Assembly: GCA_048939465.1 (NCBI GenBank)
Contig: JBHLPL010000023.1
Coordinates: forward strand, 1 to 22,078
Source of the DNA: Promethearchaeota archaeon
GTDB lineage: Archaea > Asgardarchaeota > Odinarchaeia > Odinarchaeales > JBHLKK01
DNA: 22,078 nt
Direction: 5' to 3'
The notes below the pieces were generated by a model. That model did not search any database. It saw nothing but the letters and a program-made list of their open reading frames with translations, and had not been told where the DNA came from. Shown piece after piece: positions 2-3,049 of the stretch. Numbering within the stretch: position 1 is the stretch's first letter; each line of letters starts with the position of its first letter. The position numbers were made by a program, and so were the translations under genes.

Positions 2-1933
2 CTAATGGAATGACTCCTTTATATAATTTAGAAGGCCACCAGCTAGTAAGATGCTCTTGGACCGTGAACTGAGGTCGACTCTAGCAGAGAATTCTATTCC
101 TTTGGTACTATTCTTGACAACTAGTCTCGTTTCCCTCTTTTCTAGTGTCTTTCTAATCTTTTTCATCTCTATTTTATCGCCTTGCTCGACAGAATCATAA
201 ACCTTTTCATCTTCAAACTCTAGAGGCAGAATTCCAAAATTAACCAGATTGGCTTTGTGTATTCTGGCGAATGATTTAGCCATCACTGCTCTAACTCCTA
301 GATACATAGGAGCCAAAGCTGCGTGCTCTCTACTGGAACCCTGCCCATAATTCTCTCCCGCTACGATAAAACCGCCGCCTTTCTCCTTGGCTCGAGAAAC
401 GAAAGAGGAATCAACCTGCTCGAATACGTACTCGCTGATAGCCGGGACATTGCTTCTTAGAGGAAGTATCTTGACTCCGGCAGGCATTATGTGATCTGTT
501 GTTATATTGTCCCCTAGGCGTAATAGCACCTCAAAATGCAGCTCATCTTCAAGTGGGCCTCTTAAGGGCAGTTGCTTGATGTTTGGCCCCCTTATTATTT
601 CGATCTTCTCTGGTTCAGAAGATGGTGGAAGTATCATTCCATCATCAATTTTGATTTTGCTGGGCATTCTGATTTCGGGATAGTCTCCCAGCTTACGTGG
701 GTCCCTCAAGACTCCAAAGATGGCTGTTGCGGCTGCTGTTTCCGGGCTTACGAGGTACAGTTGAGCGTCTCTGGTACCACTACGCCCCTCAAAATTCCTG
801 TTGAATGTTCTCACAGAAATACTGCCAGAAGGCGGAGCTTGCCCCATGCCAATGCACGGACCGCACGCACTCTCCAGTATTCGGGCACCTGATGAGATCA
901 AATCTGCCAGTGCACCGTTCCTTGCTATTTCCTCAAGAACCTGGCGTGAACCGGGAGAGACAATCAGACTGAGGTTAGGATGGACTTTTTTCCCCTTTAA
1001 TATGGCAGCCACTACCATGAGATCCTTCAGGGAAGAGTTGGTACAACTTCCAATGGCCACTTGTTGGACCTCCAATCCTTCTATCTCACTAACCTTGGAT
1101 ACGTTTCCTGGACTGTGGGGCGTTGCTACCAAAGGCTCTATTTGTGCTAGATCAATCTCAATGGTTTCTTCATATTGCGCATTGTCATCAGGTTTTAATT
1201 CTTTCCATTCATCCGATCTTTCCTGCATTGCGAAGAACTTCTTTGTTGTCTCGTCTGAAGGGAATATTGAGGTCGTCGCTCCCGTCTCGGCACCCATGTT
1301 TGCGATTGTAGCCCTCTCATAGACATCCAAATCTTCGACTCCATGTCCGAAGTATTCCAAAACCTTGCCTACTCCTCCCTTTACACCAATGATCCTAAGA
1401 ACTTCCAGAATAATATCCTTTGCAGCAACCCAACGCTGTCTTTTTCCAATGAGATTGATGCCTACAACACCTGGAACCTCCAGATAAAAAGGAGCACCCC
1501 CCATTGCAGCAGCTACATCCAATCCGCCAGCACCGATAGCAAGCATTCCTACTCCGCCTGCCGTAGGTGTGTGAGAATCTGATCCCAGCAATGTTCGTCC
1601 AGGTCGAGAGAATCGCTCGAGGTTCACTTGATGACAAATACCATTTCCCGGTCTTGAGAAATAAATCCCATACTTTGCTGCAACGCTCTGAAGGTACATA
1701 TGGTCGTCTGCATTCATGAAATTCGTTTGAAGTGTATTATGATCCACGTAGCTTACTGACAATTCGGTCTTTACTCTCGGTATTCCAAGTGCCTCAAACT
1801 GAAGATATGCCATCGTCCCTGTGGCATCCTGAGTCAAAGTTCGGTCTATTCTTACAGCAATCTCGGTACCTTCTTTGAGGCCCCCTTCAACCAGATGTTC
1901 CTTCAATATTTTATGCGTTATCGTTCCTTTCAT
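2..1933 (-). CDS. Aconitate hydratase (single-chain AcnA-type, about 643 aa)
   Basis: ORF 2..1963. Likely start is the ATG at 1933 (MKGTITHK) after the SD-like GGGGTTGA. Motifs DHNT, GICHQV, GSDSHT, IGSCTN, CGPCIGMG, RNFEGR, TTDHI and YGQGSSREHA are typical of the aconitase family. Confidence 0.93.
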   Translation of the reverse strand: MKGTITHKILKEHLVEGGLKEGTEIAVRIDRTLTQDATGTMAYLQFEALGIPRVKTELSVSYVDHNTLQTNFMNADDHMYLQSVAAKYGIYFSRPGNGICHQVNLERFSRPGRTLLGSDSHTPTAGGVGMLAIGAGGLDVAAAMGGAPFYLEVPGVVGINLIGKRQRWVAAKDIILEVLRIIGVKGGVGKVLEYFGHGVEDLDVYERATIANMGAETGATTSIFPSDETTKKFFAMQERSDEWKELKPDDNAQYEETIEIDLAQIEPLVATPHSPGNVSKVSEIEGLEVQQVAIGSCTNSSLKDLMVVAAILKGKKVHPNLSLIVSPGSRQVLEEIARNGALADLISSGARILESACGPCIGMGQAPPSGSISVRTFNRNFEGRSGTRDAQLYLVSPETAAATAIFGVLRDPRKLGDYPEIRMPSKIKIDDGMILPPSSEPEKIEIIRGPNIKQLPLRGPLEDELHFEVLLRLGDNITTDHIMPAGVKILPLRSNVPAISEYVFEQVDSSFVSRAKEKGGGFIVAGENYGQGSSREHAALAPMYLGVRAVMAKSFARIHKANLVNFGILPLEFEDEKVYDSVEQGDKIEMKKIRKTLEKRETRLVVKNSTKGIEFSARVDLSSRSKSILLAGGLLNYIKESFH

Positions 1934-2027
1934 TTCAACCCCTCTTGGCTTTGGCTTCAGCATCCTTTCCGAAGGATCCCGACTTTGTACATATTGATTA
2001 GAAAAGGATTTGGTGGGGTCGGTGGGA

Positions 2028-2053
2028 TTTTCCCCAAGCTGATTTTCCTTGGC
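2028..2053 (-). other. tRNA-Trp intron 3 (T-loop, position 59/60, 26 nt)
   Basis: The T stem is the outer helix. Central helix TTCA/GGAA pairs 3 of 4, bulges are AA^G and AA^T, and the inner helix is CCAAG/CTTGG. Removal restores the T-loop TTCAAAT. Confidence 0.85.
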
Positions 2054-2066
2054 TTTGAACCCACAA

Positions 2067-2096
2067 TTCGTCTTAGCAGACGATCCGGCTGTTAAT
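2067..2096 (-). other. tRNA-Trp intron 2 (variable loop, position 46/47, 30 nt)
   Basis: Bulge GG^A, central helix CGTT/GACG, bulge AA^T, inner helix TTA/TAA then CAG/CTG. Removal restores the 5-nt variable loop TGGTT, with U48 matching A15. Confidence 0.8.
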
Positions 2097-2105
2097 CCAA
2101 CGGGT

Positions 2106-2171
2106 TTCTTCGGAGTGGACCGCTCCAGAGGCTCTTCATCCGTTTGTCAGCAGATCTATTGCCTGGGACAT
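2106..2171 (-). other. tRNA-Trp intron 1 (canonical position 37/38, 66 nt), with C/D-box-like elements
   Basis: Lies between G37 (2172) and A38 (2105). Central helix CTCC/GAAG pairs 3 of 4, so the motif is a relaxed BHB/BHL. Contains CTGA, ATGAAGA, TCTGGAGC (antisense to the anticodon loop) and CCGA. Confidence 0.85.
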
Positions 2172-2233
2172 CTGGAGCCCGTCGTCCTACCTGATTAGAC
2201 CACGACCCCTTCAAGAACCTGTAAAATCTTGAA

Positions 2234-2241
2234 ATATAAAA
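2234..2241 (-). promoter_or_regulatory. TATA box of the tRNA-Trp gene
   Basis: TTTTATAT about 25 nt upstream of tRNA G1 (2209). Confidence 0.65.
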
Positions 2242-2554: not shown

Positions 2555-3049
2555 TCAGCTAATTAGACGCCCTTCAGAATCGATCTCGCCTTTCCTTATC
2601 CTCGAGGAGGAGATTGGCATCTTATCCTCTGCAAGAGCCAAAGGGATCAGAACAATTTTGATCGGGGGTATTTTCCTTTGAATTCTAATCTGATTGATCT
2701 CTTCTGCGCGGGCGTAGGTTTCTTTGGTGACCACTATTGCTTCAATTTCTTGACTAGATATTGCGGGTCCGTAAGGATCCTTTAGAGGGATTATCTTAAC
2801 CCTATCGGCGACTCCCTTTTCCTCCAAAAATCTTTCTATTTTAGCTTTTCTCATTTCGAATGGCAAGATTCTTTCTCTTTCAGGTTTTCCTTTCAGCATC
2901 TCTTCAGTTGTTACCCCCAGAATCACACTCTTACCTAATTTAAGCGCCTTCAAGAGCGCGAATTTATGTCCTGCATGAAAATGATCAAATGTCCCTGCAA
3001 AGCCTACGCAGCTGAATTTGCCCTTACTGCAATCTCCCACGAAGATCAC
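2555..3049 (-). CDS. coaD: Phosphopantetheine adenylyltransferase (archaeal CoaD, cytidylyltransferase fold)
   Basis: GTFDHFHAGH (HxGH), LGVT, DPYGP, IVVTKET and ISSSRIRKGEID motifs. GTG start is uncertain. Confidence 0.88.
   Translation of the reverse strand: MIFVGDCSKGKFSCVGFAGTFDHFHAGHKFALLKALKLGKSVILGVTTEEMLKGKPERERILPFEMRKAKIERFLEEKGVADRVKIIPLKDPYGPAISSQEIEAIVVTKETYARAEEINQIRIQRKIPPIKIVLIPLALAEDKMPISSSRIRKGEIDSEGRLIS

Follow-up and report, generated by a model that had tools for sequence, protein, structure and literature searches.

A probably functional tRNA-Trp(CCA) gene with three introns, two of them at non-canonical sites, in an Odinarchaeia-related Asgard archaeon

Transfer RNA (tRNA) genes with several introns were reportedly described in Thermoproteales by Sugahara in 2007 and 2008, and a box C/D small RNA (sRNA) is said to have been found in the archaeal tRNA-Trp intron by Clouet d'Orval in 2001 and by Singh in 2004 (Haloferax, Pyrococcus sR50). 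The maximum in Thermoproteales is three introns per tRNA gene (PMC4033280). Asgard tRNA genes carry up to five inserts, and 92-95% of the tRNA genes are interrupted in Atabeyarchaeia and Freyarchaeia (PMC11291895; 10.64898/2026.10.13.758758); repeated independent intron gains in Asgard tRNA genes were inferred in a preprint (Goswami et al. 2026, 10.64898/2026.10.13.758758). The bulge-helix-bulge (BHB) rule of archaeal splicing requires a central helix of 4 base pairs (bp), bulges of 3 nucleotides (nt) on opposite strands and at least one flanking helix (forms hBHBh', hBH or HBh'), and in the canonical case the central helix contains the first two anticodon bases (PMC4090602). The tRNA-Trp intron has a median length of 65 nt (PMC4090602), is found as a stable 65-nt circle in Sulfolobus (PMC3326292) and harbors a nested box C/D sRNA in archaea with the same layout as described below (PMC4090602, PMC3326292, PMC7994747). 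Here, a tRNA-Trp gene was analyzed in a 22,078-nt stretch of contig JBHLPL010000023.1 (the window, meaning the whole stretch of DNA), which originates from an Asgard archaeon related to Odinarchaeia and belonging to the same order as the Odinarchaeia genomes of the genome collection.

Based on all analyses, it was concluded that the locus is very probably a functional tRNA-Trp(CCA) gene with three introns at positions 37/38, 46/47 and 59/60. The gene occupies 199 nt of the minus strand, from window position 2209 (start) to 2011 (end); the plus strand of 2011-2209 starts with TGGTGGGGTCGG and ends with CCACGACCCC, which assigns the gene to the minus strand. Gene position i corresponds to window position 2210-i. 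The gene is composed of four exons and three inserts of 66, 30 and 26 nt, so that 122 of the 199 nt are intronic. The parts of the gene and its flanking signals are as follows:

2172..2209, minus strand: exon 1, tRNA 1-37, with the acceptor 5' strand, the D arm, the anticodon stem 5' strand and the loop CUCCAG with anticodon CCA
2106..2171, minus strand: intron 1, 66 nt, canonical position 37/38
2097..2105, minus strand: exon 2, tRNA 38-46, with A38, the anticodon stem 3' strand CCCGU and U44 G45 G46
2067..2096, minus strand: intron 2, 30 nt, position 46/47
2054..2066, minus strand: exon 3, tRNA 47-59, with U47 U48, the T stem 5' strand GUGGG and UUCAAA
2028..2053, minus strand: intron 3, 26 nt, position 59/60
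2011..2027, minus strand: exon 4, with U60, the T stem 3' strand CCCAC, the acceptor 3' strand CGACCCC, the discriminator A73 and the encoded CCA (2013-2011)
2233..2240, minus strand: TATA-like box UUUAUAUU, read from the sequence, 24-31 nt upstream of the mature 5' end
2002..2005, minus strand: oligo-T run, 6 nt past the CCA; L002 and the congener L003 also have T runs there

Excision of gene positions 39-104, 114-143 and 157-182 resulted in a 77-nt product, the encoded CCA included. The minimum-free-energy fold of this 77-mer was a cloverleaf, and ARAGORN called it tRNA-Trp(cca) up to a threshold of 120%; the first-pass annotation had given the same intron total, product length and fold. Exon 1 opens with the acceptor 5' strand GGGGUCG and continues after the D arm with the anticodon stem and loop ACGGG CUCCAG. 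As read from the sequence, the product keeps a 7-nt anticodon loop with U33 and the tRNA invariants U8, A14, G18 G19, A21, G53, U54 U55 C56, A58 and C61, and the A15-U48 pair is present. The Trp identity elements of archaea and eukaryotes are the discriminator A73 and the G1-C72 pair, and both are intact in exons 1 and 4. The TATA-like box would act as the promoter, and the oligo-T run after the CCA is a likely transcription stop.

The unspliced gene escaped the gene finders. ARAGORN made no call on the unspliced tRNA-Trp region, with or without its intron options, and none on the 199-nt gene alone; the Rfam tRNA model missed it too, whether the gathering score was applied, the region alone was searched at E<=10 or the whole genome was scanned. 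The suspicion that standard annotation may overlook this gene was therefore borne out. The Rfam matches that did appear on the region at E<=10, Pistol (E 2.1) and the C/D family sR46 (E 6.1), were regarded as noise.

The junctions were chosen by scoring all pairs of cut sites for a 4-bp central helix and two flanking 3-nt bulges, with the cut placed after the second bulge nucleotide. The relaxed motif turned out to be frequent by chance, with 194 candidate sites within the 199 nt, and the counting of motifs alone was dropped as uninformative. Chains of up to three non-overlapping candidate excisions that left 72-92 nt gave 12,116 distinct products, 267 of which passed ARAGORN at its default threshold, 10 at 115% and 4 at 120%. 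Since the default setting was too permissive as a filter, the stepwise thresholds were used instead. All four products passing 120% were tRNA-Trp, had the identical intron 1 (39-104) and intron 3 (157-182), and varied solely in the variable region. Further, a template alignment of the whole gene that used no motif information and made long gaps cheap placed inserts at 37/38, at 46/47 and in the T loop. A run of A residues makes the T-loop cuts from 56/57 to 59/60 equivalent in product, and the site of intron 3 was fixed at 59/60 by the T stem together with the 3-nt bulge rule. The earlier proposal of three introns, two of them at the non-canonical sites 46/47 and 59/60, was supported.

The comparison within the genus separated exons from introns. 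The gene architecture is shared by two same-genus genomes, with exon differences at 1 of 77 positions; in exon 1 a single D-loop base (1/38) differs from the congeners and the Odinarchaeia orthologues. The introns differ from the congeners at 5/66, 4-6/30 and 6-8/26 positions, which lie in hairpin loops, bulges and mismatch positions. Upstream of the gene, a stretch of 47 nt that includes UUUAUAUU is nearly identical in L003. It was also observed that one congener (L018) is labelled 'Candidatus Hodarchaeota' in GenBank, a label that looks inconsistent with its placement in the same order as the Odinarchaeia genomes (L016, L017, L019).

Metagenome data were compared as DNA contigs. Contigs of four metagenome runs matched the gene without one difference, including a contig of 5.4 kb (X3) and one of 244 nt (X7). 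A second haplotype, from metagenome X1, carried 2094 A>G and 2074 T>C, a compensatory change that converts U116-A136 into C116-G136 of the intron 2 helix, and additionally 2076 G>A, which repairs the A118.C134 mismatch of the window copy. No intron-less allele was seen among the metagenome DNA contigs, and none of them joined across an intron.

A motif of the BHB type was found by cut-site scoring at each of the three introns, as the first-pass annotation had proposed. The intron 1 motif is of the form hBH, with the central helix CUCC/GAAG (3/4) and the bulges AG|A and AA|A. Intron 2 is of the form HBh'; its central helix pairs C41 G42 U43 U44 with GACG (4/4) with GG|A and AA|U as the bulges. 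Its inner helix UUAACAGCC/GUCUGCUAA begins directly past the bulge. Intron 3 has the complete form hBHBh' and the top-scoring motif in the whole gene: the central helix UUCA/GGAA, flanked by the bulges AA|G and AA|U, has 3 bp and an A.G opposition, h is the 5-bp T stem, and h' is the 5-bp CCAAG/CUUGG. In the T loop, intron 3 corresponds to the canonical site, the T stem serving as the anticodon stem does there.

Unconstrained folding never formed the 4-bp central helices, as expected for protein-stabilized motifs, and the costs of constrained folds were used. The flanking helices of intron 3 had pair probabilities of ~0.95-0.99 in most states at 37 °C and fell to ~0.65-0.8 when intron 2 alone was out; the splice-competent fold of intron 3 cost 2.9 kcal/mol.

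Several observations weigh against a functional gene with these three introns. All three motifs are relaxed and none is strict. The outer helix h of intron 1 is the anticodon stem (h 7) and there is no h', whereas intron 2 has no outer helix h, and one mismatch each is present in the central helix of intron 1 (C.A) and in that of intron 3 (A.G). Two mismatches, A118.C134 and C122.U130 (positions 2076 and 2088), interrupt the intron 2 helix of the window copy, so that h' amounts to 3 here and to 9-10 perfect bp in both congeners; the splice-competent fold costs 8.6 kcal/mol here versus 1.2-1.5 kcal/mol in the congeners. The intron 1 fold costs ~10 kcal/mol (10.3 here), because an antisense helix competes with the motif. 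Finally, the assembly is 91% complete, and an unassembled second tRNA-Trp is conceivable. The two intron 2 mismatches are real bases, since the metagenome contigs reproduce the sequence exactly, and they may slow the splicing of the sole tRNA-Trp in this strain. They are missing from the congeners and from the co-occurring haplotypes.

The genome encodes two paralogues of the EndA family. The alpha-like L020 (204 amino acids) aligned end to end with the Aeropyrum pernix (alpha-beta)2 enzyme's catalytic alpha subunit (3p1z_B, E 1.5e-44), retains the catalytic His of GPGIDH and is ungapped through the YG(K/Q)P...(K)P stretch. This stretch contains Lys44 of the L1 loop, which is specific to Crenarchaea, and the loop lysine is retained in L020; what Lys44 does was reportedly addressed by Hirata in 2011. 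The beta-like L021 (191 amino acids) aligned best with the Methanocaldococcus jannaschii enzyme, has Ala at the position of the catalytic His and is missing the loop, consistent with what a structural beta subunit would look like. The Asgard EndA has been reported to be an (alpha-beta)2-type enzyme with an L1 loop (PMC5829648). The RtcB ligase is encoded at two loci. At one of them (G000:C31:2961-5708, minus strand) the family match falls into two pieces, profile 1-57 and 45-426, which lie ~1.4 kb apart in one open frame of 973 amino acids, and this looks like an intein-type insertion.

From the gene anatomy, its conservation and the presence of these enzymes, we infer transcription, cleavage and ligation as follows. 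A precursor of ~200 nt would probably be transcribed from the TATA-like box ~27 nt upstream. An (alpha-beta)2 endonuclease would excise the three introns at the BHB-type motifs, and RtcB would join the exons into the canonical 77-nt tRNA with A73, G1-C72 and the encoded CCA. The frame of the T-loop intron would be preformed. The variable-loop intron would borrow C41-U44 from the anticodon stem, as a fold alternative to the intron 1 motif. Within intron 1, an antisense segment of 8 nt would pair with the anticodon loop.

This antisense segment belongs to a conserved part of intron 1. The first-pass annotation had given no strand for the gene, which is on the minus strand, and had overlooked that intron 1 is conserved and box C/D-like. 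Three elements were distinguished within intron 1:

2147..2150, minus strand: CUGA, box D'-like, conserved in three Asgard families
2133..2139, minus strand: AUGAAGA, box C'-like (consensus AUGA[A/C]GA), conserved in three families
2122..2129, minus strand: antisense UCUGGAGC, the exact complement of tRNA 31-38 (GCUCCAGA), conserved in three families

The box C consensus is RUGAUGA, and AUGAAGA agrees with it except at the flipped-out position 5. CUGA and AUGAAGA stand 7 nt apart, in agreement with the short loop of an internal C'/D' pair. The order of blocks is the same in the three families: CUGA, a spacer of 7-13 nt (folded as a hairpin in one of the families), AUGA(A/C)GA, UCUGGAGC(G), and CUGA/CUGG/CCGA by the 3' splice site. 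Between genomes of the genus, one position varies in the 42 nt that run from CUGA to the 3' end, and the stretch before CUGA is variable. In the minimum-free-energy fold of the precursor, the 8-bp helix formed by UCUGGAGC replaces the anticodon stem, which has a pair probability of 0.04. Intron 1 is thereby the classic, conserved intron of archaeal tRNA-Trp genes, with box C/D-like features.

The label box C/D-like was kept, and a role as a methylation guide is only conjectured, because the terminal boxes are degenerate, the spacing to C34 is wrong and a guide for tRNA position 39 was not found. As terminal boxes, the genus has AGAUGU spanning the 5' splice site and CCGA close to the 3' one; AGAAGA and CUGA/CUGG take their places in other families. 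Counted upstream from the D-like box, C34 pairs with the 12th nt here, not with the fifth as in a guide; the pairing nt is the 8th in Odinarchaeia, and family f12 has it at the 7th. The alignment of intron 1 to sR46 mentioned above was weak and non-significant. A perfect 12-nt complement to the segment before CUGA occurs in this genome only at C23:6558 (plus strand, G000), its own opposite strand excepted. One match is about the chance level (~0.2 expected), and the segment differs between genomes of the genus; the site was rejected as a target of this segment.

It had been claimed that the C41-U44 segment used by intron 2 competes with the anticodon stem framing intron 1 and that splicing is therefore probably ordered. 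The first part stood. The central helix of intron 2 uses C41-U44 (gene 108-111), gene positions 108-110 are common to both motifs, and the two motifs cannot coexist because they need alternative pairings of C41-U43. An obligatory order in which intron 2 leaves before intron 1, or the reverse, was considered on this ground. The intron 2 fold was 1.7-1.9 kcal/mol cheaper while intron 1 was still present (8.6 versus 10.3 kcal/mol after its removal here, 1.2 versus 3.1 in a congener), the intron 1 fold became 0.8-1.4 kcal/mol cheaper once intron 2 was gone (8.9 versus 10.3 kcal/mol before), and the pair probability of the anticodon stem rose from 0.04 to ~0.3. However, this coupling is small compared with the 9-10 kcal/mol cost of the intron 1 fold, which is mainly set by the antisense helix, and refolding leaves both orders possible. 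An obligatory order is therefore rather unlikely. What the modeled energies weakly suggest is a mild, non-obligatory preference of 1-2 kcal/mol for intron 2 before intron 1. In constrained folding, intron 3 was independent of both other introns.

An extended form of this idea would be a conformationally gated maturation of the cell's only tRNA-Trp, in which modification is coupled to a defined splicing order. The antisense segment of intron 1 would first hold the anticodon loop, perhaps for ribose methylation, and the variable-loop intron would be cut while the anticodon stem is open; the stem would then form and intron 1 would leave, with the T-loop intron removed independently. Such a scheme was judged unlikely.

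The four products passing ARAGORN at 120% left the variable region to be settled. The one serious alternative, a cut at 48/49, in which gene positions 116-145 are excised and the mature loop reads UGGAU instead of UGGUU, gives a product that likewise passes at 120%. Its register has 3/4 pairs in the central helix, and the 3' strand of the anticodon stem forms an outer helix of 6 bp with the 5' strand of the T stem. On the other hand, it lacks an intron helix beside the bulges, and its fold costs 7.5-13.4 kcal/mol across the three genomes versus 1.2-8.6 kcal/mol for 46/47. The A47 of this product is at odds with the U47 of uninterrupted Asgard tRNA-Trp variable loops, whereas the UGGUU produced by the 46/47 cut matches the N-G-R-U-Y loops of Asgard tRNA-Trp genes with no insert there (AGGUU in 9, CGAUC in 8, and others). 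The compensatory change at 116-136 also favors the helix of the 46/47 motif. A cut at 48/49 in the same gene is accordingly improbable, and the variable-region intron was placed at 46/47.

No second tRNA-Trp was found in the assembly: exon 1 matched nowhere else, and none was present among the Rfam and ARAGORN calls. An automated 'Trp' call at C68:13113 was rejected as a tRNA-Arg(UCG) with a canonical intron. Nor did a second copy turn up in three same-genus genomes or in four Odinarchaeia genomes. It is very improbable that the locus is a decaying or non-functional relic and that a working tRNA-Trp resides in the 9% of the genome missing from the assembly. The incomplete assembly, the two helix mismatches absent from the congeners and the three relaxed motifs would suit such a relic. 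Against it stand exons differing at 1/77 positions across the genus while the introns diverge, a conserved upstream TATA region, fully intact tRNA invariants and Trp identity elements, the lack of a second copy in those same-genus and Odinarchaeia genomes and the persistence of the identical sequence in several metagenomes.

The three-intron gene is not an exception in its genome. A scan for an acceptor stem, a T arm and an encoded CCA found 31 tRNA genes of 78-199 nt, compared with 24 by Rfam and 25 by ARAGORN; these numbers are approximate, and one solution at least is wrong. A single gene is compact, and the T loop is interrupted in 13 of the 31. The chain-and-rank procedure, again a rough count, assigned 0, 1, 2, 3 and 4 introns to 1, 11, 13, 4 and 2 genes, respectively, so that ~19 of the 31 have at least two, at recurring sites such as 59/60 (~10 genes) and 45/46-46/47 (~9 genes). 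The identical trio of 37/38, 46/47 and 59/60 occurs in tRNA-Pro(GGG) at C21:6978 (minus strand). Further interrupted tRNA genes are found, for example, at C118:6129 (minus), C88:5638 (plus) and C15:35 (minus). No sequence-related copies of the three Trp introns were found in the genome. The first-pass annotation had suggested comparing intron positions, and the same sites indeed recur in other tRNAs of the genome and the same architecture in two congeners. Its statements that multi-intron tRNAs are known mainly from Thermoproteales and that three introns are near the upper end are outdated: the host is an Asgard archaeon, Asgard multi-intron tRNAs with up to five introns per gene have been published, and the pattern is common in this genome.

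The gene was further compared with tRNA-Trp genes of other Asgard archaea, 32 distinct genes from four families. An intron at the canonical site was present in 32/32, with a length of 31-69 nt (mostly 58-69). The four Odinarchaeia genes (L004-L007) carry an extra insert of 27-30 nt at 43/44 or 44/45. In them a strict motif CUCG/UGAG (4/4) with an inner helix of 8-9 bp would lead to a 7-nt variable region A(G/A)UGGUU, and the 5-nt loop UGGUU requires a relaxed register at 43/44; by eye, the Odinarchaeia 43/44 insert has no evident similarity to the 46/47 intron of the window genus. T-loop introns were found in four genes of other families, at 56/57 (L012, L013), 58/59 (L010) and 59/60 (L011). 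L011 is the sole bearer of a T-loop intron among ten sampled genomes of its genus, and L013 (G039:C66), from another Asgard family, has three introns of its own, one of 67 nt at 37/38, one of ~22 nt close to 48/49 and one of 30 nt at 56/57. The occurrence of T-loop introns at three sites across lineages supports repeated gain at sites resembling the anticodon-loop motif, in line with the preprint (10.64898/2026.10.13.758758).

The tRNA-Trp gene sits in a gap between two genes of the same strand:

2555-3049, minus strand: cytidylyltransferase-like gene, the upstream neighbor
2-1963, minus strand: aconitase-family gene, the downstream neighbor

The Pfam PF00330 match of the aconitase-family protein is split over two stretches. 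A plus-strand frame of 66 codons runs over the tRNA gene (1895-2095), and nothing was found in its support.

The gene is a well-supported but ordinary example, as heavily interrupted Asgard tRNA genes have already been described, and current understanding is unchanged by these findings. With this gene missed by annotators, the genome would seem unable to read UGG codons, and the same annotation gap applies to many other tRNAs of this genome. The gene also brings a lineage related to Odinarchaeia into the account of intron-rich Asgard tRNAs, and it shows that the ancient tRNA-Trp intron, with its box C/D-like elements, has persisted in three or more of the four sampled Asgard families.

Among known systems, the Thermoproteales genes resemble this one in having up to three BHB introns, relaxed hBH and HBh' motifs at non-canonical sites and an (alpha-beta)2 endonuclease with an extra loop (PMC4033280, PMC4090602). 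They belong to another phylum, and intron transposition has been reported there, whereas no sign of it was seen here. The published Asgard multi-intron tRNAs are from the same phylum and share with this gene several endonuclease-type introns per gene, many of them at non-canonical sites, T-arm inserts that often have good motifs, and inserts or whole genes missed by annotators. That work centers on Atabeyarchaeia, Freyrarchaeaceae and Jordiarchaeaceae, and the main text of the preprint names neither Odinarchaeia nor tRNA-Trp (10.64898/2026.10.13.758758); here the gene comes from an Odinarchaeia-related genus. Compared with the archaeal tRNA-Trp intron with a nested box C/D sRNA, intron 1 differs in its degenerate terminal C/D boxes and in an antisense-to-D distance that varies among families. 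It agrees with that intron in the tRNA, the canonical site and the size (66 nt here), in the pairing of CUGA with AUGA(A/C)GA across a short spacer, and in an anticodon-loop antisense that competes with the splicing motif.

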